The position numbers and the translations under genes were made by a program. A stretch of 64,000 bases of DNA. Origin: Vicinamibacterales bacterium (GTDB lineage Bacteria; Acidobacteriota; Vicinamibacteria; Vicinamibacterales; UBA8438). Below the pieces are notes generated by a model. The model searched no databases. It saw nothing but the letters and a program-made list of their open reading frames with translations, and was not told the origin of the DNA. Position 1 is the stretch's first letter; each line of letters begins with the position of its first letter. The stretch spans positions 2,089,396-2,153,395 of the forward strand of contig OZ253457.1 in NCBI GenBank assembly GCA_965261285.1, written 5' to 3'. Positions 15,996 through 62,878 of this stretch are shown here, in pieces.

Positions 15996-17893
15996 GCGCC
16001 CTCGATCCTCCCGCGGCGGCCGGCGGCGTCAGCGCGCCGAAGGCCGGCGGCGTCAGCGCGCCAAGGGCCGGCAGCATCAGCGCCGCAGAGGGCGGCAGCG
16101 TCAGCGCGCCGGAGGCCGGCGGCGTCAGCGCGCCAAGGGCCGGCAGCGTCAGCGCCGCAGAGGGCGGTAGCGTCAGCGCGCCGGCGGCCGGCAGCGTCAG
16201 CGCCGCAGAGGGCGGCAGCGTCGGCGCGGCGGAGGCTGGTCGCGGCGGCGGCACCGGGACCGGCGCGGGTCCGCCGGACGACCTGCCGGCCAACGGCGGG
16301 CCGGCCGCGGTCGACCATGCGGAGGAGATCGCGCGGGCGCGCCGGCTCGCCGAGCGCTACCGCGTGGAGTTCGCGGACATGGACCGGTTCAGCATGGACG
16401 CGGACCTGTTCCGGTCCATTCCCGCCGACCTCATGCTCCGCTACGGCTTCGTCCCCTACCGCCGGGTGGGGGACACCCTGGTCATCGTCGTCTCCGACCC
16501 CGACCTCCCGAAGATCGACGAGCTGGCGTTGCTGCTCGACACCGCCATCCGGGTGACGGTGGGGACGCGGTCGGCCATCGAGTCCATCCTCAAGAAGAGC
16601 GAGGGGTCGCAGCGGGTCCTCGACGAGGCCACCGAGAGCTTCGAGCTGCAGATTCTCCACGAGGACGAGGGCGCCGAGGACAGCCTGACCGTCGAGCGGC
16701 TCACGAGCGACATCAGCCCCATCATCCGCCTCGTCGACTCGACGATCTACACCGCCCTGCAGCGCCGCGCGAGCGACATCCACGTCGAGACCCTCGACGA
16801 CGCCGTCCACGTGAAGTACCGCATCGACGGCACCCTGCAGCCGGCCATGCGGCCGGTGGACAAGCAGTTCCACGGCGCCATCCTCTCGCGCATCAAGGTC
16901 ATGGCCGAGCTCGACATCGCCGAGAAGCGGATTCCCCAGGACGGCCGCTTCAAGGTGCGGGTGCCGGGGAAGACCATCGACTTCCGGGTGTCGGTGATGC
17001 CCACCGTGCACGGCGAGGACGCGGTGATCCGCATCCTCGACAAGGAGACCATCAGCGAGCAGTTCCGCGAGCTGCGGCTCGACGTGCTCGGGTTCGCCGA
17101 CGCCGAGCTGCGGCGGTTCCGCCGCGCCATCAAGGAGCCCTACGGCATGGTGCTGGTGACCGGGCCCACCGGCAGCGGCAAGACGACGACGCTCTACGCG
17201 GCGCTCTCGGAGATCCACTCGCCCGAGGACAAGATCGTCACCATCGAGGACCCCGTCGAGTACCAGCTTCACGGCGTCACCCAGATCCCCATCAACGAGC
17301 GCAAGGGGCTGACCTTCGCCCGCGGGCTGCGCTCCATCCTCCGCCACGATCCCGACAAGATCATGGTCGGGGAGATCCGAGACTCGGAGACCGCGCAGAT
17401 CGCCATCCAGTCGGCCCTGACCGGGCATCTCGTCTTCACCACCGTGCACGCCAACAACGTGCTCGACGTGCTCGGCCGGTTCCTGAACATGGGCGTCGAG
17501 GCCTACCAGTTCATCTCGTCGCTGAACTGCGTGCTCGCCCAGCGCCTCGTCCGGATGATTTGCACCGAGTGCCGCCGGCCGGCCCGGCTGAGCGACGAGG
17601 CCCTCGAGGAGGCCGGCATCGACCCCGGCCTCGCGCGGGGCCGCGAGCTCTTCGAGGGCACAGGGTGCATCGAGTGCAACGGGACCGGGTACCGCGGCCG
17701 CACCGCGCTGTGCGAGCTGCTCGACCTGAGCGACCGGCTGCGCGAGTTGATCCTGGCGCGGGCCCCGACCTCGGAGATCAAGCAGGCGATGCGGGCCGAG
17801 GGCATGCGCTTCCTGCGGGAGTCGGCAGTCGAGAAGGTGCTGGCCGGCCTGACCACCCTGCAGGAGATCAACAAGGTCACGTTCTTCAAATGA
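15992..17893 (+). CDS. pilB: Type IV pilus / T2SS assembly ATPase (PilB/GspE family) with repetitive N-terminus
   Basis: ATGA overlap with the pilC stop. T2SSE N-domain (FRSIPADLMLRYGFVPY), Walker A GPTGSGKTTT, Asp box and His box (HLVFTTVHAN), and a tetracysteine motif (CTECRRP...CIECNGTGYRGR). Confidence 0.9.
   Translation: MSALDPPAAAGGVSAPKAGGVSAPRAGSISAAEGGSVSAPEAGGVSAPRAGSVSAAEGGSVSAPAAGSVSAAEGGSVGAAEAGRGGGTGTGAGPPDDLPANGGPAAVDHAEEIARARRLAERYRVEFADMDRFSMDADLFRSIPADLMLRYGFVPYRRVGDTLVIVVSDPDLPKIDELALLLDTAIRVTVGTRSAIESILKKSEGSQRVLDEATESFELQILHEDEGAEDSLTVERLTSDISPIIRLVDSTIYTALQRRASDIHVETLDDAVHVKYRIDGTLQPAMRPVDKQFHGAILSRIKVMAELDIAEKRIPQDGRFKVRVPGKTIDFRVSVMPTVHGEDAVIRILDKETISEQFRELRLDVLGFADAELRRFRRAIKEPYGMVLVTGPTGSGKTTTLYAALSEIHSPEDKIVTIEDPVEYQLHGVTQIPINERKGLTFARGLRSILRHDPDKIMVGEIRDSETAQIAIQSALTGHLVFTTVHANNVLDVLGRFLNMGVEAYQFISSLNCVLAQRLVRMICTECRRPARLSDEALEEAGIDPGLARGRELFEGTGCIECNGTGYRGRTALCELLDLSDRLRELILARAPTSEIKQAMRAEGMRFLRESAVEKVLAGLTTLQEINKVTFFK
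16019..16234 (+). repeat. 9 x 24-bp in-frame tandem repeat in the pilB 5' region
   Basis: Unit GCCGGCGGCGTCAGCGCGCCGAAG and variants. These encode AGGVSAPK/AGGVSAPR/AGSISAAE/GGSVSAPE... Confidence 0.85.
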
Positions 17894-18861
17894 GTGCGTT
17901 CGCCAGCCTGTCCCGCCTCTTCGCCGCCCCCGCGCCGTCCGCGGGCATCGAGATCGCGGCCGACCGCGTCACCGGCGTCGTCCTCGACCGCGAGCGGCGC
18001 GTGGCCGCCGCCGTCTCCCGGCCGCTTCCTTCCGGGGTGGTGACGCCGGCCGTCAACGCCGCCAACGTCGTCGAGCCCGACACGGTCCGCGACGTCGTCC
18101 GGGACGTGCGGCTGGCCCTGCCCGGGGCGCCCCGGCGCGTGGCCCTGGTCGTGCCCGACAGCGCCGCCAAGGTGTCGCTGCTCCGCTTCGACAAGGTGCC
18201 CGCGCGCGCCGCCGACCTCGATCAGCTCGTGCGATGGCAGGCGCGGAAGACGGCGCCGTTCCGCATTGAGGACGCCCAGGTGGCCTGCGCGCCCGGCGCC
18301 CCCCTCGACGGCGGGGGGCGGGAGTTCGTCGTGAGCCTCGTGCGGCGCGACATCGTCGAGGAGTACGAGGGCGCCTGCACCCGGGGCGGGGCCCACGCGG
18401 GGGTAGTGGACCTGGCCAGCTTCAGCCTGATCGACGCCGTGCTCGCGGGCCGTCCCCCCGCCGAGGCGGACTGGCTGCTCGTGCACGCGGCAGGTGGATA
18501 CCGGTCGATCGCCGTCGTGCGCCGGGGACACCTCATCCTGTTCCGCCACCGCCCGGCCCGCGGCGGCGACGAGGACCTCGTGGACCTCGTGCACCAGACC
18601 ACGATGTACTACGAGGATCGGCTGGCGGGCGACGGGTACGGGCGCGTGCTGCTGGCCGTCAGCCGGCAGGGGGCCACGGCCGAGGACGCGGCGCGGGTGC
18701 GGCGGCTCATCGAGACCCATCTCGACACCCCCGTGACCCCCATCGCCGCGGGCCGGTCGGCGGAGCCGCCGCAGGAGGGGGAGCCGCTTCCCGACGTGGC
18801 GGCGGCGTTGGCGGGCCTGCTCGTCCGCGAGCACGGCCCCCGCGGCGGGGCCGCGGCCTGA
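17890..18861 (+). CDS. pilM: PilM-like actin-fold pilus assembly protein
   Basis: ATGA overlap with the pilB stop. PilM-like sequence (IEIAADRVTGVVL..., VALVVPDSAAKVSLLRFDKVPARAADLDQLVRWQARK, VVDLASFSL), in the position expected before pilN/pilO. Confidence 0.8.
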   Translation: MSAFASLSRLFAAPAPSAGIEIAADRVTGVVLDRERRVAAAVSRPLPSGVVTPAVNAANVVEPDTVRDVVRDVRLALPGAPRRVALVVPDSAAKVSLLRFDKVPARAADLDQLVRWQARKTAPFRIEDAQVACAPGAPLDGGGREFVVSLVRRDIVEEYEGACTRGGAHAGVVDLASFSLIDAVLAGRPPAEADWLLVHAAGGYRSIAVVRRGHLILFRHRPARGGDEDLVDLVHQTTMYYEDRLAGDGYGRVLLAVSRQGATAEDAARVRRLIETHLDTPVTPIAAGRSAEPPQEGEPLPDVAAALAGLLVREHGPRGGAAA

Positions 18862-19135
18862 CCGAAGTCGCGCCGGCGGGCCTGCTCGTTTGCGAGCACG
18901 GCCCCCGCGGCGGGGCCGCGGCCTGACCGAAGACGCGCCGGCGGGCCTTCTCGTCCGCGAGCACCCCCCCCCGCGGCGGGGCCGCGGCCTGACCGAAGTC
19001 GCGCCGGCGGGCCTTCTCGTCCGCGAGCACGGCCCCCCCGCCGCGGGGCCGCGGCCTGACCGAAGTCGCGCCGGGGGCCTTCTCGTCCGCGAGCACGGCC
19101 CCTGCGGCGGGGCTGCGGCCTGACCGACGACGCAG
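18811..19135 (+). repeat. 5 x 65-66-bp tandem repeat: pilM 3' end plus four extra copies
   Basis: The anchor GCGAGCACGG recurs at 18827, 18892, 18957, 19023 and 19089. Each unit carries the ...LLVREHGP.GGAAA-TGA coding end and the palindrome GGCCCC-GCGGC-GGGGCC. The C-run length differs between copies. Confidence 0.85.
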
Positions 19136-19183
19136 CGGGCGCCCATGCCGCGGCCCGCGCCCGTGGTATGTTGCAGGTTGGCG

Positions 19184-19843
19184 ATGCTGCGGACGAATCT
19201 GGCGACCCGGCCCTTCTACAACGAGCGCCTGGCGCGGGCGGCGCTCGGTCTGGCCGCGGCGGTCGGCCTTGCGATACTCGCGGCCGGGGTGGTGCGCCTC
19301 GTCGACCTCGCCCGCCTGAACGGCGACCTCGAGGCGCGCATGGATCGCGCGGCCCGGGACACCGCGGCCCTGGCCGCCCGCGCCGCCGAGGCGCAGCGCG
19401 CCGCGACCCCGCGGGACCTCACGGCGCTGGCCGAGGCGACCCGGGAGGCCAACACCCTGATCACCCAGCGCGTGTTCTCGTGGACCGACTTCTTCAACCG
19501 CATCGAGGCCACCCTGCCGCCGGACGTCATGGTGACCGAGGTGCGGCCGGAGATCGAGCCGGGCACGGTCGACGTGACGATGGGGGTGCTGGGCCGGAGC
19601 CTCGACGCCGTCAGCCGGTTCGTCACGACCCTGGAGACGTCCGGCGCGTTCATCGGGGTGCTGAACCGGCAGGTGGAGCTGACCGAGGACGGGATGTACC
19701 GCGCGGTGCTGCGGGGCCGCTACCTCGAGTCGGAAGCGCCCCTCGACGCCGCCGGCGGGGGAACGGGGGAGGGCGGCCCGCCGGGGAGCGCGTCGGAGGC
19801 GCCGCCGGGCTCGGGCGCTCCCGATGCCCGGCCCGGCGACTGA
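19184..19843 (+). CDS. pilN: PilN-like (fimbrial assembly) membrane protein
   Basis: MLRTNLATRPFYNERLARAALGLAAAVGLAILAAG is the typical PilN N-terminus plus TM segment, followed by a coiled-coil and an alpha/beta C-terminus. It lies between pilM and pilO. Confidence 0.7.
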   Translation: MLRTNLATRPFYNERLARAALGLAAAVGLAILAAGVVRLVDLARLNGDLEARMDRAARDTAALAARAAEAQRAATPRDLTALAEATREANTLITQRVFSWTDFFNRIEATLPPDVMVTEVRPEIEPGTVDVTMGVLGRSLDAVSRFVTTLETSGAFIGVLNRQVELTEDGMYRAVLRGRYLESEAPLDAAGGGTGEGGPPGSASEAPPGSGAPDARPGD

Positions 19844-19866
19844 GGGTGCGCGCCGCGGGGGACCCG

Positions 19867-20173
19867 ATGATCGAGACCGGCATGTCGATGACGCTGCTGC
19901 GGCGCATCGCCTCGGACCACCGGCGGCTGGTGACGGCGGTGGCCGTGTTGCCGGCGGTCGACGGCCCATGATCGAGACCGGCATGTCGATGACGCTGCTG
20001 CGGCGCATCGCCTCGGATCACCGGCGGCTGGTGACGGCGGTGGCCGTGTTGCCGGCGGTCGACGGCCCATGATCGAGACCGGCATGTCGATGACGCTGCT
20101 GCGGCGCATCGCCTCGGATCACCGGCGGCTGGTGACGGCGGTGGCCGTGTTGCCGGCGGTCGACGGCCCATGA
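19867..20173 (+). other. Three chained 34-codon mini-ORFs (MIETGMSMTLLRRIASDHRRLVTAVAVLPAVDGP) produced by the 101-bp repeat
   Basis: ORFs at 19867-19971, 19968-20072 and 20069-20173. Each stops at a TGA that overlaps the next ATG (ATGA). The last one hands over to the pilO ATG at 20170. Confidence 0.5.
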
Positions 20174-20270
20174 TCGAGACCGGCATGTCGATGACGCTGC
20201 TGCGGCGCATCGCCTCGGATCACCGGCGGCTGGTGACGGCCGTGGCTCTGTTGCTGGCCGTCGACGGCCT
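19867..20270 (+). repeat. 4 x 101-bp tandem repeat of the pilO 5' end
   Basis: ATGATCGAGACCGGCATGTCGATGACGCTGCTGCGG... begins at 19867, 19968, 20069 and 20170. Copies 1-3 are nearly identical. Copy 4 diverges after ~75 nt and continues as pilO. Confidence 0.9.
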
Positions 20271-20784
20271 GCTCTACGCGGTGGCGTTGTACCCGTGGTC
20301 GCGAAGGGTCGTGCAGGCGGAGGCCGACGCGGCGGCGGCGGAGAGCCGCCTGGTCCAGATGCGCACCGCCTGGGAGACGGCGACCCGGACCGGTGTCAGC
20401 AGCACCCGTGCCGAGGAGCGCCTCGAGCAGTTCTACACGCAGGTGCTCCCGCCCGACTTCGCGGGCGCTCGCGCCATTCTCTCGCCCTACCTCGATCGAC
20501 TGGCCCGCGATTCCGCCCTCGTGCTCGAGCGGCAGAGCAGCGTGTCGGACCGGGGGGGCGGCGGCGGGCTGTCCCGGCTGCGGACCACGATGGTCCTCGC
20601 GGGTCGCTACGAGGACGTCCGCCGCTTCATCCACGTCCTCGAGACGGCCCCCGAGTTCATCCTCGTCGAGGACGTCGTGCTGGGGCAGGGCAACGAGTCG
20701 GACGACCGGCTGGTGCTGACCCTCGGGGTCTCGACGTACTATCGCGACGCCGCCCCGGCGGCCGAGGGCGGGCCCGGGTCATGA
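20170..20784 (+). CDS. pilO: PilO/GspM-like pilus assembly protein
   Basis: An N-terminal TM segment (LVTAVALLLAVDGLLYAVALY), a coiled-coil, then a ferredoxin-like C-terminus (LRTTMVLAGRYEDVRRFIHVLETAPEFILVEDVVL). Positioned after pilN. Confidence 0.7.
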   Translation: MIETGMSMTLLRRIASDHRRLVTAVALLLAVDGLLYAVALYPWSRRVVQAEADAAAAESRLVQMRTAWETATRTGVSSTRAEERLEQFYTQVLPPDFAGARAILSPYLDRLARDSALVLERQSSVSDRGGGGGLSRLRTTMVLAGRYEDVRRFIHVLETAPEFILVEDVVLGQGNESDDRLVLTLGVSTYYRDAAPAAEGGPGS

Positions 20785-21290
20785 GGGGACGCCGCGGGCT
20801 CCTGCGCGCCCTTCACGCCCGGGCCGGGGCCGAGCGCGGGTACAGCTTCGTCGAGCTGCTCGTGGTCAGCGCCATCATTCTCATCCTGGCGTCGGCGGTG
20901 ATGCCGCTGACCCGGGTGACGATGCAGCGCCAGCGCGAGGCCGAGCTGCGGCGGGCGTTGCGGGAGATGCGCACCGCGATCGACCGCTACAAGGACGCCG
21001 TCGACCTCGGCACGATCGGCGGCCTCGAGGTGGAGGCGGACAACCAGGGTTACCCGGCCAGCCTCGAGGTCCTCGTGGAGGGCGTCGAGCTGGCCAACGA
21101 CGCGACCGGCCGCAAGATGCGCTTCCTCCGGCGCATTCCGTTCGATCCGATGACGCAGGGCCGCGAGTGGGGGCTGCGCTCGTACGAGGACGAGCCCGAT
21201 TCCCGGCGGTGGAGCGGCGACAACGTGTACGACGTCTACACGACGTCGAGGGCGACGGCCCTCGACGGGACGCGTTACGACGAGTGGTGA
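20781..21290 (+). CDS. GspG-like type II secretion pseudopilin / type IV pilin-like protein
   Basis: ATGA overlap with the pilO stop. Prepilin-type N-terminus RGYSFVELLVVSAIILILASAVMP, then a GspG-like core (ELRRALREMRTAIDRYKD..., FLRRIPFDPMT). Confidence 0.8.
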   Translation: MRGRRGLLRALHARAGAERGYSFVELLVVSAIILILASAVMPLTRVTMQRQREAELRRALREMRTAIDRYKDAVDLGTIGGLEVEADNQGYPASLEVLVEGVELANDATGRKMRFLRRIPFDPMTQGREWGLRSYEDEPDSRRWSGDNVYDVYTTSRATALDGTRYDEW

Positions 21291-21478
21291 CGATGACAGG
21301 CTGGCGACAACGTGTACAACGTGTACACGACGTCCAGGCGACGGCCCTCGACGGGACGCGTTACGACGAGTGGTGACGACGATGGAACGCTGGCGACAAC
21401 GTGTACGACAGCTTCACGCGGTTGACGGCCACGGCTCTCGACGAGACCGGTTGCGACGAGCGATGACGATGGCAGGCT
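21216..21478 (+). repeat. ~3 x 87-89-bp tandem repeat of the pseudopilin 3' end and gene junction
   Basis: GGCGACAACGTGTAC... starts at 21216, 21303 and 21392. Copy 2 retains ...ALDGTRYDEW-TGA in another frame. Copy 3 is degenerate and runs into the start of the next pseudopilin. Confidence 0.8.
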
Positions 21479-21939
21479 GGCGTACCCGACGTGCGGCGCC
21501 CCGGCCGGAGGCCCGCCCGCCGATCCCGGCCCGACGGCGGCCGGCGACCGGCGCCGGTTCGGCGGCGGGCTGGACGCTCATCGAGCTGGTGGTGGTGGTC
21601 TCGCTGATGTCGACGCTGGTCGCCATCGCCATGGTCGGCTACGGGACGGCGGTGACACGGACCCGGGAAGCGGTCCTGAAGGAGGACCTCTTTCGCATGC
21701 GCGACGCCATCGACCAGTACTACGCCGACCGGACCGAGTATCCGCCGGCCCTGGAGAACCTGGTCTCCGAGGGGTATCTGCGCGCCATCCCGGAAGACCC
21801 GTTCACGCGCTCGACGTCGACCTGGCAGGTCGTCCTCGCCGAGTACGATCCCGCCGATCCCCTCGCCCAGGGCGTCTTCGATGTGCACAGCGGCGCGAGC
21901 GGGGCCGGCCTCGACGGCACGCCCTACGCGGAGTGGTAG
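21463..21939 (+). CDS. GspG-like type II secretion pseudopilin
   Basis: Prepilin N-terminus AGWTLIELVVVVSLMSTLVAIAMVGY. GspG core TREAVLKEDLFRMRDAIDQYYADRTEYPPALENLVSEGYLRAIPEDPFT. It shares the C-terminal LDGT.Y.EW with the preceding gene. Confidence 0.8.
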   Translation: MTMAGWRTRRAAPRPEARPPIPARRRPATGAGSAAGWTLIELVVVVSLMSTLVAIAMVGYGTAVTRTREAVLKEDLFRMRDAIDQYYADRTEYPPALENLVSEGYLRAIPEDPFTRSTSTWQVVLAEYDPADPLAQGVFDVHSGASGAGLDGTPYAEW

Positions 21940-42914: not shown

Positions 42915-43089
42915 CACGTTCGATTGTACCAAGTCGCCCGTCCGCCGCGGCGGGGCAGTCTCCGCTCCGCGACCGAAGAGCCCCCTCGACTACACGCTCA
43001 GGGGTTCAACTCGCTGAAGACCCGAGGTTCCGGCGGCGATGTCGGCCGGCCGACGGTCGCGTCACCCGTGTCCCTCGGCCGGTGACCTC

Positions 43090-43650
43090 AGGCAACGTCA
43101 AGCCGAACCGCAGCACCATCCGCTGAACCCCGCAACTCCGGCCGCCACCACCGACCCGGCAGAACGCAGAAACCGGGGCACCGTCCCACGACCCAGCAGA
43201 ACGCGGAAACCGAGGGCACCGTCCCCCGAGCCCCGCGTCACCGTCGTCCGAGCCCCTCGCAGCGCCGAGCCGAACCGCCGCACCCGGCAGCGTCCCCCGA
43301 GCCCCGCGAAACGCCAAGCCGAACCGCAGCACCACCGCCAAGCCCCAGCAACTCCGGCCACCAATCACGACCCACCGTCACGTCAAACCACGTCACCGTC
43401 GTCCGAGCCCTCGCAGCGCCGAGCTGAGCCGCCGCACCCGGCAGCGTCCCCCGAGCCCCGCGAAACGCCAAGCCGAACCGCAGCACCACCGCCAAGCCCC
43501 AGCAACTCCGGCCACCAACCACGACCCACCGTCACGCCGAGCTGAACCGCCGCACCCGGCAGCGTCCCCCGGGCCCCGCGAAAACGCCAAGCCGAACCGC
43601 AGCACCACCGCCAAGCCCCAGCAACTCCGGCCACCAACCGACCCAGCCAA
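43090..43650 (+). repeat. C-rich/G,T-poor tandem array (~3.5 units of ~118-154 bp)
   Basis: GCCGAGC(C/T)GAACCGCCGCACCCGGCAGCGTCCCCCGAGCCCCGCGAAACGCCAAGCCGAACCGCAGCACCACCGCCAAGCCCCAGCAACTCCGGCCACCAA... starts at 43264, 43418 and 43536. A degenerate copy lies at 43090-43260. Confidence 0.85.
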
Positions 43651-43651
43651 C

Positions 43652-43687
43652 CCCTTGATCGGACCCACGAAGTGGGTCCGATAAGGG
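43652..43687. terminator. Long hairpin downstream of parB (possible terminator)
   Basis: CCCTTGATCGGACCCAC-GAA-GTGGGTCCGATAAGGG, 16 bp with one bulge, followed on the + strand by AT-rich ATGTTATGTTAACTTT. It lies 125 nt beyond the parB stop. Confidence 0.4.
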
Positions 43688-43812
43688 ATGTTATGTTAAC
43701 TTTGGTGTCCTGAAACGCCCTCAGAGCGCGTGCAAACCGCCGGCGAGGGGCCGATCAGTGCTGGGCCGCCGGTTAGGTCACTTCCGAACGATCCGGCGCG
43801 ACCGCCGGCCGG

Positions 43813-49505: not shown

Positions 49506-50219
49506 ATGCAACTGCAGGCCGATGGCGCGTCGTCTGCTGGGTTGAGTGGCGGCCTGCTCGACTGGATTGCCCAGTCGACGCCCCTCAACAAGTTCGTCCT
49601 TCTTCTTCTGCTCCTGTTCTCGGTCTATTCGTGGGGCATCGCCCTCCACAAGCTGTGGCTGTTCCCCCGGATAGAACGGCAGACATGGAGCTTTCTCGAC
49701 GTGTTTCGGCGCAGCACGAAGTTCTCCGAGGTGAACTCGGCGTGCCGCACGCTGAAGCACAGTCCGCTGGCCGGACTCTTCCAGGCCGGCTACGCCGAGC
49801 TCAACGCGCAGCTTCGCCAGGGCGACGGCGGGACCGGCGAGCGTCCCGTCCTGCGAAGCCTCGAGGCGGTCGACCGGGCGCTGCAGCGGGCCACGGTGGT
49901 CGAGACCAACAAGCTCGAGCACCGCGTCCACCTGCTGGCGACGACCGCCAGCATCACCCCGTTCATCGGGCTGTTCGGCACCGTGGTGGGCATCGTCAAC
50001 AGCTTCCAGGGCATCGCGGGGACCGGCTCCACGAGCCTGACGGTGGTGGCTCCCGGCATCGCCGAGGCGCTGGTGGCGACCGCCGCCGGCCTCGGGGCGG
50101 CGATTCCCGCCGTCTACTTCTACAACCACCTGACGAACAAGGTGCGCCTGTACCTGTCGATGATGGACGACTTCTCCCTGGAGTTCCTCAACATCTCGGA
50201 GAGGAACTTCATGCAATAG
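49506..50219 (+). CDS. tolQ: Tol-Pal system proton channel TolQ (MotA/TolQ/ExbB family)
   Basis: FVLLLLLLFSVYSWGIAL..., ITPFIGLFGTVVGIVNSF, APGIAEALVATAAGLGAAIPAVYFYN. It heads a tolR-tolA-tolB-pal-cpoB series. Confidence 0.85.
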   Translation: MQLQADGASSAGLSGGLLDWIAQSTPLNKFVLLLLLLFSVYSWGIALHKLWLFPRIERQTWSFLDVFRRSTKFSEVNSACRTLKHSPLAGLFQAGYAELNAQLRQGDGGTGERPVLRSLEAVDRALQRATVVETNKLEHRVHLLATTASITPFIGLFGTVVGIVNSFQGIAGTGSTSLTVVAPGIAEALVATAAGLGAAIPAVYFYNHLTNKVRLYLSMMDDFSLEFLNISERNFMQ

Positions 50220-50378
50220 TCTGCGCCGTGGTAACGGCGCGGACTGCTGGAGGGTTGGTTGGGCGCCCGGCGGAGCCGCAGGCGACGGCGGGCGGGCGAG
50301 TAGTCGCCGTGGAACGGCGCGGACTGCTGGAGGGTTGGTTGGGCGCCCGGCGGAGCAGCAGGCGACGATTGGCGGGCC
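50218..50378 (+). repeat. Two tandem ~81-bp copies of the REP-like element in the tolQ-tolR spacer
   Basis: AGTCTGCGCCG-TGGTAA-CGGCGCGGACT (50218-50245, overlapping the tolQ TAG), then GCTGGAGGGTTGGTTGGGCGCCCGGCGGAGC.GCAGGCGACG. The unit is repeated from ~50299. Confidence 0.8.
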
Positions 50379-50414: not shown

Positions 50415-50882
50415 ATGCCCACGATTCACGGCAACGGTGCGGGCGGCCCCTCCGGCGGCCGGCGGCGGGGACGCCCGCGGGCCGCGACGTCGCTGTCGGA
50501 GATCAACGTGGTGCCGCTCGTGGACGTCATGCTCGTGCTGCTGATCATCTTCATGGTGGCGGCGCCGATGATGCAGCGCGGCATGGACGTGAGCCTCCCG
50601 GTGTCGCGGCGCTCCGATCAGCTCGTCGCCGAACGGCTGTTCGTGACGATCGGGTTGACGTTCCGCGAGGATCGCATCGTGCAGGTGGGGGAAGACCTGG
50701 TCCGGCTCGAGGTTCTCGCGGAGCGCATGCGGCAGGAGCTGGACGCGAGCGCCGCGCGGGAGGTCTTCGTCCGGGGCGACGGAGACATCACGTATCGGGA
50801 GCTGGTGTCGGTCATCGACGAGCTCAAGGCGGGCGGCGTCTCCGACGTCGGGCTCGTGACCGCGCTGCCGACCGAGCCGTGA
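50415..50882 (+). CDS. tolR: TolR (ExbD/TolR family)
   Basis: EINVVPLVDVMLVLLIIFMVAAPMM...VSLP, then a periplasmic domain. Confidence 0.85.
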   Translation: MPTIHGNGAGGPSGGRRRGRPRAATSLSEINVVPLVDVMLVLLIIFMVAAPMMQRGMDVSLPVSRRSDQLVAERLFVTIGLTFREDRIVQVGEDLVRLEVLAERMRQELDASAAREVFVRGDGDITYRELVSVIDELKAGGVSDVGLVTALPTEP

Positions 50883-59975: not shown

Positions 59976-62585
59976 TCAGAACTCCAGGGGCTGGCAGGGG
60001 CCGCTGGCGGTCTCGGTCCGCGATCGCTCGCGCCCGTCGACCGCCACGACGTCGGACGCGCGATAGAATGTCAGCGCGAGCCCCCGCGTGCTGCGGCACA
60101 CCGGCTCGGCGGGCTCGACGGGCTCGGCCGGCTCGGCCTCGGCCGAATCGTCGGGCTCGACCTCCTCGACGATCTCCACCGGCGCTCCCTCCATCTCGTA
60201 GCGCCCCTCGGCCTCATGGTACACGAGAGCCTCGCCCGTCGCCCATCGGTCGTCCAGGCGCAACTGCACGGCGCCGGTCGAGGCCAGCCGGTCCAGGGTC
60301 CGGCCGTCCGGCTGCAGGAAGACCTCGATCGTCTCGGCCGCGAGATCGCCGTGGTCGGAGCGGAGGACGGCCGCGCCCTCGTAGAGGGCATGCCGGAGCT
60401 CGTCGTCGTAGGCGAAGCTGCCCGCGGTGGCGTCGGTGCGTGCGACGACGCTCTCTCCCGTCTCCGCGTCGATGCGCACGATCTGGATGGTCGTTCGCGC
60501 CGACCCGCTGATGGAGAGGCCCCCGGTGGCGTGGTCGATGGTGATGGCCTCACCCTCGAAGCTCGTGTTGCCCTGCCACATCCGGACCTGACCGCCGTAG
60601 GTGACCTGGCGCGAGTCGTTGTCGTAGTCCAGCGTATCGGCCCGGATGTTGATTCTCTGCGTCCGCTCCATGAGGGCGGGCACCCTGTCCTCGTCGTCCC
60701 CGCCCCGGCCGTCGCCGGGCGGAGCGAGGACGGTCTGCACGCCGCCCGACCCCGACACCCTCGACCCGTCCAGGGCGACCTCGAGACGCCCTCCCGCCTC
60801 GATGGTGCGGTCGCCGTCGACGAGGATCGCCGGCGGGCCGGCGTCGGCGTCCGGCGAAGGCCCACCGTCCGGCGAAGGCCCACCGTCCGGCGAAGGCCCA
60901 CCGTCCGGCGAAGGCCCGCCGTCCGGCAAGGGCTCACCGTCCGGCGAAGGCTCACCGTCCGGCAAGGGCTCACCGTCCGGCAAAGGCTCACCGTCCGGCG
61001 AAGGCTCACCGTCCGGCAAGGACTCGCCGTCCGGCAAGGGCTCGCCGTCCGGCGAAGGCTCGCCGTCCGACGCGGACTCGCCTTCCGACGAGGATCCAGC
61101 CCTCGGCAGAGAATCGGCGCTCGGCGAGAGCGTTATCGTCCCCTCCAGCAGGTCGTAGGCCGCGCTGACCGCCTCGGCCCGGCGGGTCTCGTCCTCGAAC
61201 CGGACCCCGCCGAAGAACCGCACGTCCAGCAGGCCGATCAGCCCCCGGCCCACACCGGCCTCGAACCGCTCGGCGCGGACGGTCCGGGTGACCGCCGCCT
61301 CGCTCGCCGATGCCTCGTGCCGCTCGCGATACGCGACCCCGCCGTCCAGGCTGATCGCGTTCAGTCCCGTTTCGGGGGTCCCGGTGGCGGTGAGCGTCCG
61401 GGCGCGAATCTCCTGGCGGGGTTCGCCGGGACTCACGGGAAGCTGCAGGAATACGCCGCCGCCAGCGTCCAGTCCGACGACCTCGGCCCGGCCCGGCGCC
61501 ATGAGCACGTCCATCGTGTCGCTCTCGATCCGCGAGCCTTCCCCGCCGTCCGTTCCCACCAGGTCCACGACCGACTGCCCGGTCAGGACGACCCGCTGGA
61601 GCTGCCGCGTGGCCGGGTCGAACGCCAGGGTGGTCTCGTCCGCCGCCGATTCGCGCAGCCCCCCGTCGCCCGCGGCGGCGGAACGAATGCGGACGCCCCC
61701 GAGCAGCTCCATCGACTCGAGCGCGTTCTCGCCGTCCCCGAAGTACGCGGTCGCCGCCTCGGCGGCGATGGTCAGATCGCCGGTCCGGATGCTCGTTCCC
61801 CCCTCGAAGCGCATGTAGCGGTCGGCGTCGGCGAGGGTGACGTGCGGGGCGTCGACGTCGACCGCGGCCCGGTCCGCGTCGCCGGTCAACCGCACGCCGG
61901 CGGCGCCGTCGAGGGTGATGACGCCCCGCTCGCGGTCCTGAACGACGTCGTTCCCGAACGCCTCCAGGCCGGCGCGGGCCAGGGTCGTCACCCCGCCGGG
62001 ATCGCTCATGGTGACGACGTTGCGGGCTTCGCTGTAGCTGGCGTCGCCGGTCCGGGCGGCCAGGCCGCCGGCGTCGGCGAGGCGCACGTCGCCGCTCACC
62101 GTGAAGTCGCCCTGCCCCTCCTCGACCGACAGCTCCGAGGCGCTCATCGTGAAGCCGTCCCGGTCTCCGCGCGGCGGCACGGTCACGTCGACGCCGCCGA
62201 AGAACCGCATCGACCCGTCCGCGTAGGTCGACTGCCACGGGGCTTCGAGCCGGAAGATCACCACGTCGCCGTCGCTCCGGACGAACTCGATGCCGGCGCT
62301 CTGGCTCACCGCCTCGGGGTCTGCCCGATCGACGGCGCGGGCCTCCGTCGATTCCCTGCGCTCGCGCATGCCGGTGACGAGGAAGGCCGCGAAGAGGGCC
62401 AGCCCGGCCGCGATGCCGAGCCGGGCCGCACGCTGCCATCGGACGGGCCGACGGCGCCGGCGCGCGCCCCCGGAGACCCCCGCGGGGGCCGTCGCCGGGG
62501 CCGGCCGCGCTTCGCCGGCGGAGCCCGGGACCGCGGGCGCGTCGGGCCCGGCCTCCGACCGGTCGGGTTGGTGATCCACGTTCAT
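59976..62585 (-). CDS. Large membrane-anchored LptC/LptA (OstA-like) multi-domain protein
   Basis: An N-terminal anchor ([17 protein letters not shown]) followed by repeated OstA-like beta-jellyroll-type segments. The C-terminal part resembles LptA ([36 protein letters not shown]..., [25 protein letters not shown]). The position before lptB supports the call. Start ATG at 62585, or TTG at 62615. Confidence 0.65.
60849..61083. repeat. ~13 x 18-bp in-frame tandem repeat inside the LptC/A-like gene
   Basis: GTCCGGCGAAGGCCCACC and variants, encoding ([18 protein letters not shown])n between two OstA-like halves. Confidence 0.85.
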
Positions 62586-62609
62586 CACTGTATCGAGCTT
62601 GCGCGGCGT

Positions 62610-62878
62610 CGGCAATCCGGCGGCGCGCGGGGGACGGTTCGCGTGTGCGTCTCACACCCGCCCGGAGGCACGGCAATCCGCGGGCGCGCGGAGGGGCGCG
62701 TGACGGTGGGCCGGCTGCCGGGGTGATCCCCCGGCAATCCGCGAGCGCGCGGAGGGGCGTGGTACGGCCGCCGAACATCCACCGTCTCGACGCGGCAATC
62801 CGCGGGCGCGCGGAGGGGCGCAGCGCACCGTGGTTACCGGCGAAGTGGTCCGGCCATCCCCGGGCGCGCGGAGGGGCG
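62610..62878. CRISPR. Short CRISPR-like array: 5 repeats of 28-29 nt, 30-34 nt unique spacers, 61-bp period; no cas genes in window
   Basis: CGGCAATCCGCGGGCGCGCGGAGGGGCG at 62671 and 62793, with one substitution at 62732. Degenerate copies at 62610 and 62851. The repeat contains the stem TCCGCG-GGCG-CGCGGA. I could not align the spacers to each other. Confidence 0.5.

Follow-up and report, generated by a model that had tools for sequence, protein, structure and literature searches.

A copy-variable tandem repeat of the start region of a PilO/GspM-like gene in Vicinamibacterales, probably a near-neutral minisatellite at a gene border

Background

Tandem repeats with units of 40–100 bp that lie in operon spacers, run in the direction of the genes and vary in copy number among strains are known in mycobacteria as MIRU-VNTRs (variable number tandem repeats, VNTRs, made of mycobacterial interspersed repetitive units, MIRUs). 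In two later papers (PMC3184786, PMC5056196, both citing Supply et al. 1997), the small open reading frames (ORFs) of these units are described as overlapping the stop and start codons of the flanking genes with their ends. Some mycobacterial VNTRs also influence the expression of the gene downstream (PMC4338821, PMC12817950). Here we describe a tandem array in a 64-kb stretch of contig OZ253457.1 (hereafter the window, meaning all 64,000 nucleotides analyzed) from a bacterium of the order Vicinamibacterales, in which the first 101 bp of a PilO/GspM-like gene (referred to as pilO) occur four times head to tail within a secretion/pilus operon. The array is a minisatellite VNTR, that is, an element of a known kind, and it lies outside the MIRU family, its closest described precedent. 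We consider it probable that it is an ordinary, near-neutral example of its kind situated at a gene border.

The initial annotation of the window stated that no described precedent was known for chained duplications of a start region in such an operon. This is too strong, as MIRU-VNTRs constitute a published precedent. A literature search directed at tandem repeats in Vicinamibacteria, and at start-codon duplications together with translational coupling, returned nothing relevant.

The array resembles the MIRU-VNTRs (Supply et al. 1997, 2000) in consisting of direct repeats within an operon that run along the direction of transcription, vary in copy number, and contain small ORFs. The overlap of these ORFs with stop and start codons is partial here: the stop of each mini-ORF overlaps the next start, but the first ORF begins 23 nt past the pilN stop codon. 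In contrast, according to the same sources, MIRUs are a single family present at about 40 loci and possibly transposed, whereas each array described here duplicates its own gene border, and no related unit is dispersed at many loci within the window. The 101-bp unit is furthermore part of a gene rather than of a spacer, and the first mini-ORF does not overlap the pilN stop.

Three other described systems share individual features with the array. Like the generic bacterial minisatellites that form by slipped-strand mispairing or unequal recombination and are used for typing by multiple-locus VNTR analysis, it has head-to-tail copies of high identity, a strain-variable copy number, and hybrid units. 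Unlike them, its unit contains a start codon and half of a transmembrane (TM) helix, making every additional copy a translatable decoy ORF, and several such arrays are clustered in one operon. The Mycobacterium tuberculosis repeat VNTR3690/MTUB39 is likewise a copy-variable repeat that lies directly upstream of a gene, lpdA, and could scale its expression (PMC4338821, PMC12817950). However, such promoter or 5'-region VNTRs act on transcription by way of promoter elements, whereas the 101-bp array lies within an operon, where any effect would be exerted on translation. Finally, ATGA overlaps at which termination is followed by reinitiation (Huber et al. 2019, 2023; PMC6728339, PMC10666635) have the same 4-nt overlap and are also native to this operon, but native overlaps join two different conserved genes, while those of the array join truncated copies of a single gene and are lineage-specific. 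Coupling by termination-reinitiation is efficient at overlaps and nearly lost at a distance of about 20 nt (PMC10666635, PMC6728339).

Structure of the array and its mini-ORFs

Tandem Repeats Finder, run on the window, reports an array at 19867–20269 with a period of 101, 4.0 copies, 98% matches, 0% indels and a score of 764. The first 50 nt of the unit have exactly four sites (19867, 19968, 20069 and 20170) and no other in the window, where none is expected by chance. Both results agree with the four head-to-tail copies originally proposed. The array therefore has the direct head-to-tail repeats, high identity and unit size, in the range of tens of base pairs, of a VNTR, and no further copy of the unit is found elsewhere in the 64-kb window when up to three mismatches are allowed.

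All four copies are on the forward strand. Copy 1 (19867–19967) alone retains the native upstream context, in which a G-rich element resembling a Shine-Dalgarno (SD) sequence, GGGGGA, occupies 19856–19861. Copies 2 (19968–20068) and 3 (20069–20169) are identical to each other and are hybrid units, in which the 3' part (positions 72–101) matches copy 1 and the 5' part, with GAT at unit position 51, matches the functional copy. Copy 4 (20170–20270) is the 5' end of the full-length gene. A single synonymous difference, GAC versus GAT at unit position 51, separates copy 1 from copies 2 and 3. Copy 4 differs from copies 1–3 at six positions, all within the last 30 nt of the unit, and its codon at unit position 86 encodes leucine where the upstream copies encode proline. 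We inspected the borders of the duplication by eye for microhomology and found no clear direct repeat. The junction base, a C at unit position 101, agrees with neither parental flank.

Each upstream copy translates to MIETGMSMTLLRRIASDHRRLVTAVAVLPAVDGP and ends on the TGA contained in the ATGA of the next copy. This gives three mini-ORFs on the forward strand, each of 34 codons plus TGA (19867–19971, 19968–20072 and 20069–20173), the TGA of the first overlapping the ATG of copy 2. The junction reads CC-ATGA-TCG at 19966–19974, 20067–20075 and 20168–20176, and the three peptides are identical, so that the chain of 34-codon ORFs noticed at first stands as described. The upstream-copy peptide would have a 34-amino-acid (MIETG-extended) or a 29-amino-acid form, the sequence being MSMTLLRRIASDHRRLVTAVAVLPAVDGP as against the MIETG-extended form, and the exact peptide of the third mini-ORF has already been called as a gene on three public contigs. 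The 4-nt stop/start overlap typical of a coupled gene pair is present, provided that a subclade-specific ATG at unit position 1 is used; the next conserved ATG lies 11 nt past each mini-ORF TGA.

Judged from the sequence, the chain is an arithmetic by-product of the length and phase of the unit. Because the unit starts with ATGA and 101 is 2 mod 3, the frame of an upstream copy always reaches that TGA. The finding is chiefly a caution, in that a single tandem duplication can by itself give rise to a striking chain of coupled mini-ORFs when the unit opens with ATGA and measures 2 mod 3. A programmed −1 frameshift at C-CCA-TGA that would fuse the copies, an idea suggested by the sequence only, was dropped as unsupported; its product would carry three half TM helices.

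Copy number in related genomes

We compared the array with loci from related assemblies (denoted by L-numbers), all of which are metagenome-assembled genomes of Vicinamibacterales (Acidobacteriota). Nucleotide identities to the window are those of the sequence just downstream of the array (930 bp in the case of L002). Independent metagenome assemblies of the same species, at approximately 96–99.8% identity, carry the array in different copy numbers. There are two copies in L002 (99.2% identity over the 930 bp downstream) and in L007 (97.2%, the copies being 91% alike), three in L045 (99.7%), and four in L044 (96.0%), a short-read scaffold from another sample whose copies are only 94% alike and hence well resolved by short reads. 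The contigs of L001 (99.8%) and L003 (98.9%) begin inside the array. Every other relative has a single copy, with the pilN stop approximately 20–35 nt before the start; these are L004, L005, L008, L010, L043 and L009 (94.5–96% identity) and some 30 more distant loci. L008–L025 are all of this single-copy type. Scanning Joint Genome Institute (JGI) metagenomes with a conserved 25-mer returned one relative, the single-copy L043.

Copy number thus varies among close strains as in a VNTR, with two, three or four copies in one lineage and one in the others. The initial annotation had raised the possibility of a slippage-prone locus with heterogeneous copy number, and had proposed comparing the pilN-pilO junction in related genomes. 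The assemblies of the same species bear out the heterogeneity, and the comparison shows the array to be specific to this lineage.

Two derived bases, T86C (which changes a leucine of the TM helix to proline) and T101C, are common to all upstream copies in all strains and indicate that the array originated once. Copy 2 of L045 has the same hybrid structure as copies 2 and 3 of the window, the 5' part of the functional copy joined to the 3' part of copy 1, and such hybrids are, from their sequence, exactly what an array of two copies would yield through slippage or unequal crossover. In L001 the last copy but one is a mosaic with a different breakpoint, which indicates that expansion occurred more than once. 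With at least two distinct breakpoints, the array has the hybrid units that recombination or slippage leaves in a VNTR. Paralogous copies differ by 6–9% and orthologous copies by 3–4%, so the duplication is not brand new and has persisted through divergence at the species level. The suggestion that the array is simply a recent duplication is thus right as to duplication, given the one copy in all other lineages, but the event is not very recent, since the array is common to strains that are 3–4% apart.

A separate observation concerns the far end of the L001 contig, whose final 55 bp (2844–2898) exactly match positions 1095–1149 of the window; the contig is not colinear with the window past 22937. 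This end is either a k-mer-sized chimeric join or a strain rearrangement.

The repeated gene and its start codon

The repeated gene (20170–20784, forward strand) encodes 204 amino acids counted from the subclade-specific ATG. It follows a PilN-like gene (19145–19843, forward strand; stop TGA at 19841–19843) in an operon with the order T2SSF-type platform gene, GspE/PilB ATPase gene (PF00437 match, E=4e-131), pilM-like gene, pilN-like gene, repeated gene, and two genes for prepilin-type pseudopilins. The native spacers of the operon measure 2–40 nt, and native ATGA stop/start overlaps on the forward strand join the ATPase gene to pilM (17890–17893) and pilO to pseudopilin 1 (20781–20784).

No profile of the PilO/GspM type in NCBIfam or Pfam matches the repeated gene above its curated cut-off. 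The NCBIfam GspM profile gives E=1.5e-10 and 41 bits against a cut-off of 60, Pfam T2SSM_b gives E=1e-3 and 19.4 bits against a cut-off of 21.7, and the top sequence match in the PDB is Myxococcus PilO (3jc8, E=0.7). The protein does have the architecture of the family, with a short cytoplasmic N-terminus, one TM helix and about 200 amino acids. The gene also has the expected context, after pilM- and pilN-like genes, before pseudopilins and near a GspE/PilB ATPase gene, and several homologues carry the JGI name PilO. The name pilO given in the initial annotation is therefore acceptable in the sense of a PilO/GspM-like platform protein, on grounds of size, topology, position and JGI names, but every profile match is below its cut-off. 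The sole hydrophobic segment spans approximately residues 21–41 and the unit ends in codon 34, in agreement with the earlier description of the duplicated part as the cytoplasmic tail plus half of the TM helix.

In an alignment of homologues, the proteins of the family begin with MSMTLL or MTLL. At the DNA level, all aligned sequences have the ATG at unit position 16 (20185 in the window), with a conserved CGAGACCGGC before it; in one relative a canonical GGAG stands at the place of this motif. The position-1 ATG, from which the ATGA overlap derives, is confined to the subclade of the window; elsewhere the codon is GGG, AGG or ATA. An ATG of pilO is thus indeed present at unit position 1 of the window, as first annotated, but the relatives mostly start at position 16. 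The unit begins 15 nt upstream of this family-conserved start and ends inside the TM helix, and the conserved start and the 9–10 nt before it are consequently inside the unit and present in every copy.

The position-16 ATG has an SD score of −3.0 kcal/mol. SD scoring does not decide which ATG is used, since most of the operon's genes have weak scores, between −3 and −5 kcal/mol. For the position-1 ATG the predicted energy of the SD duplex is −8.6 kcal/mol in copy 1 and −6.2 kcal/mol in the later copies. Relative to a reconstructed single-copy mRNA, the predicted energy needed to open the start region in the last copy of the real array rises only from 7.2 to 8.0 kcal/mol at the conserved start, and from 9.8 to 11.8 kcal/mol at the position-1 ATG.

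Origin and effect of the array

The probable explanation, in our view, is an ordinary minisatellite VNTR at a gene border that is close to neutral. The patterns described above suggest that a local duplication of the 101-bp 5' segment of pilO created the array once, in a single species-level lineage of Vicinamibacterales, and that it later expanded and contracted through unequal recombination or replication slippage between copies. Such changes would be tolerated because the last copy stays an intact gene and every copy carries the proximal initiation region CGAGACCGGC-ATG. Duplications within genes that are not a multiple of 3 in length would be purged by selection, and survivors in a tightly packed operon would thus sit on gene borders. 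In the window no gene body encloses an array whose period is indivisible by 3, and the in-gene arrays all have periods that are multiples of 3. The 101-bp array and one of 65–67 bp span a gene end, while arrays of 80, 37, 49, 119 and 154 bp are intergenic. Within 5.5 kb the operon itself has three border arrays as well as in-frame ones. Translation probably begins at each copy, yields short truncated peptides, stops at the next start or 11 nt before it, and in part resumes by reinitiation. PilO output would probably change little overall, perhaps in a way that depends on copy number.

Several observations weigh against near-neutrality, or against a purely mutational origin. Each of the seven sampled members of the array-bearing lineage has two copies or more, with no collapse to one, although a recombinant with one copy would be a perfectly good gene. 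The lack of collapse could reflect a mild benefit instead of neutrality; the members sampled are few and non-independent. The upstream copies retain ATG, frame and TGA without an indel in all strains, even where they have diverged by 6–9% (L044, L007). About 0.6 substitutions that break the chain would be expected on a rough estimate of ours, against none observed, a difference of no statistical weight. The leucine-to-proline change in the half TM helix is shared by all upstream copies and could be due either to chance fixation or to selection against a membrane-active fragment. The G-rich SD-like element ahead of the position-1 ATG survives in copy 1 alone, and if that ATG is the real start in the subclade of the window, PilO would now depend on reinitiation. 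Finally, four of the eight long-period arrays of the window fall within the 5.5 kb of the operon (16000–21500), where an even spread predicts about 0.7 (P~0.005 by our own Poisson estimate). A purely genome-wide mutational tendency does not explain this local excess.

The alternative that survives best, though we regard it as unlikely, is a translational ladder or dosage tuner, in which ribosomes initiate at copy 1 and are handed on at the ATGA overlaps, the copy number serving as a heritable, rapidly mutable rheostat of the PilO:PilN ratio. ATGA overlaps are the native coupling style of the operon, at the ATPase/pilM and pilO/pseudopilin 1 junctions, and the SD-like GGGGGA with its stronger predicted duplex precedes copy 1 only. 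Coupling through reinitiation operates at overlaps but is lost by a distance of about 20 nt (PMC10666635, PMC6728339), and in the single-copy relatives L004, L005 and L008 of the same subclade pilO lies 20 nt past the pilN stop, which suggests that pilO was probably uncoupled before the array arose. The variation in copy number between near-identical strains, the absence of a return to one copy in any sampled strain, the local excess of arrays in the operon, and the altered expression of lpdA with VNTR copy number upstream of it in M. tuberculosis (PMC4338821, PMC12817950) also fit such a device. However, the array is limited to one species-level lineage, and the conserved start 15 nt downstream of the ATGA has its own motif in every copy, so that the last copy is probably self-initiating. 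Chaining is moreover not a design shared with the sister array at the pilM stop, which has no start codons and merely moves pilN 283 nt away. The coupling ladder or dosage device advanced in the initial annotation is not needed for the observed chain, which follows automatically from an ATGA and a length of 2 mod 3; the array at the 3' end of pilM makes no ORFs, and the ATG within the ATGA is not the family-conserved start.

A broader form of this idea, for which we see little likelihood, takes the border minisatellites together as a selected, fast-mutating means of retuning translation among the subunits of the assembly platform. The ATGA chain of pilO would then set the PilO:PilN dosage, and the other arrays would uncouple pilM from pilN and pseudopilin 1 from pseudopilin 2. 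If true, this would be a translational, operon-internal analogue of the rheostats formed by promoter VNTRs.

That the 34- or 29-amino-acid peptides are themselves functional, as decoy PilO N-termini binding a platform partner or as small membrane-associated regulators, with copy number setting the dose, appears very improbable. The identity of the three peptides in the window, the intact ORFs in all strains and the public gene calls speak for it. Between strains, however, the upstream copies freely carry non-synonymous changes (I→S, T→A, M→V, H→N, V→G), the peptide has only half a TM helix, with a proline in that half, and all other relatives lack such peptides. A still more doubtful proposal is a phase-variable contingency locus in which the number of repeats toggles pilO on and off. 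The period is indivisible by 3 and the copy number varies, but the repeat both precedes and takes in the start, and the frame after the last copy is intact at every copy number observed. A change in repeat number therefore leaves the full-length copy in frame, and the array lacks the shift of frame or of promoter spacing that characterizes phase variation; the contingency locus entertained in the initial annotation, read as an on/off switch, is not supported on this point.

A spurious expansion of a single or double copy during assembly would account for the two short-read contigs that break inside the array. Two or more copies are present, however, at seven independent loci that come from three projects or more, among them the four mutually diverged copies that short reads resolve in L044 and the three of L045, and the orthologous copies share the derived T86C and T101C. 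Given these independent assemblies with two, three and four copies, we reject an artefact as scarcely credible. The weakest alternative, an inserted dispersed repeat of the MIRU or miniature inverted-repeat transposable element type, has the MIRU-like position, size, orientation and small ORFs in its favor (PMC3184786, PMC5056196), and is dismissed because the unit is local pilO 5' sequence orthologous to the single-copy sequence of relatives and occurs at one site in the window, where the units of the other arrays are unrelated to it.

Two further candidates were rejected. A search of the whole 64-kb window gave no match to any Rfam family. The array folds slightly better than shuffled sequences (z = −2.5), and the sole recurrent local RNA element is a small CAUG...CAUG hairpin that is present in single-copy relatives too; a structured RNA was therefore not adopted. 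Repeats in the style of diversity-generating retroelements were dropped, no search for a reverse transcriptase having been made, because the changes between copy 4 and copies 1–3 are G/C and C/T rather than adenine-specific.

Other arrays in the operon

The interest of the locus lies less in the single array at pilO than in a cluster of copy-variable border arrays in one operon. These sister arrays all vary among relatives, and their units are unrelated, each being derived from its own neighboring genes. The older arrays are 82–91% identical between copies and contain indels, which, from the sequence, looks like decay.

The array at the pilM stop (18810–19127, forward strand) consists of 4.9 copies of 66 bp that are 91% identical. 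Its unit comprises the last 17 codons of pilM, the TGA and 12 nt of spacer, and it opens no chain of start codons. As a result of the array pilN lies 283 nt from pilM in the window, compared with 60 nt in L044, and the number of copies ranges from about 1 to 4.9 among relatives. In other lineages the same pilM-pilN spacer contains unrelated arrays, with units of 75 bp (L006), 41 bp (L009) and 56 bp (L024).

The second sister array (21216–21482, forward strand; 87 bp in three copies, 82% identical) spans the stop of pseudopilin 1, 2 nt of spacer and the ATG of pseudopilin 2. It yields a 27-codon ORF (21293–21376) that begins 2 nt past the stop; the upstream ATG that follows at 21382 shares the reading frame of pseudopilin 2. 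One copy is found in L006, two in L004, L005, L008, L010 and L043, and three in the lineage of the window. The gap between the pseudopilin genes widens from 2 nt (L006) through 89 nt (L004, L005) to approximately 176–196 nt (the lineage of the window), and L007 and L044 have an extra duplication of 107–108 bp at this border.

Two arrays are in frame. Three copies of a 72-bp repeat (16018–16236, forward strand) lie in the long N-terminal extension of the GspE/PilB ATPase gene; the repeat has a 24-bp sub-period and encodes (A/G)GSVSAP-like units. A 63-bp (21-amino-acid) repeat lies in the Gly/Pro/Ala-rich C-terminal tail of PilN and is present in about one copy in the window (19731–19800), in 2.2 copies in L002 (3701–3836) and L045 (576–711), and in 3.2 copies in L007 (385–583).

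In one secretion/pilus operon, four to five copy-variable arrays are clustered on gene borders, and distant relatives lack them. This points to a tendency to tandem duplication specific to both lineage and locus, for which repair defects, hairpin-rich GC DNA and selection are candidate causes. The window has eight long-period arrays, or about 1.3 per 10 kb. Their density is about 2 per 10 kb in the loci of close relatives and 0.66 per 10 kb at 75–90% PilO identity, and none was found in 156 kb from distant relatives. Natural VNTR behavior, with two to four copies, is hereby documented in an uncultured acidobacterial order that is abundant in soil. Loci of this kind could help to tell strains apart in metagenomes, and they account for the breaking of contigs in short-read assemblies. 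The pilO array also offers a natural allelic series of one to four decoy start regions for studying the downstream effect of termination-reinitiation chains.

Other repeats in the window

Outside the operon, an 80-bp tandem duplication (50224–50377, 1.9 copies, 93% identical) lies in the spacer that follows the stop of an ExbB/TolQ-like gene at 50219 and precedes the start of an ExbD/TolR-like gene at 50415. A non-coding stretch of 0.8 kb between two minus-strand genes (42990–43812) contains nested repeats with periods of 37, 49, 119 and 154 bp; it is G/T-rich on the minus strand, has no match in Rfam, and includes an AT-rich island and a perfect 9-bp hairpin with a TTCG loop near 43664–43690.

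The remaining repeats are within coding regions. Leucine-rich-repeat-like repeats of 72 bp (24 amino acids) occur in two large ORFs (4444–4672 and 8194–8952), with up to 10.5 units, and a large minus-strand ORF (59976–62651) contains 12–16 copies of an in-frame 18-bp repeat at 60811–61094.

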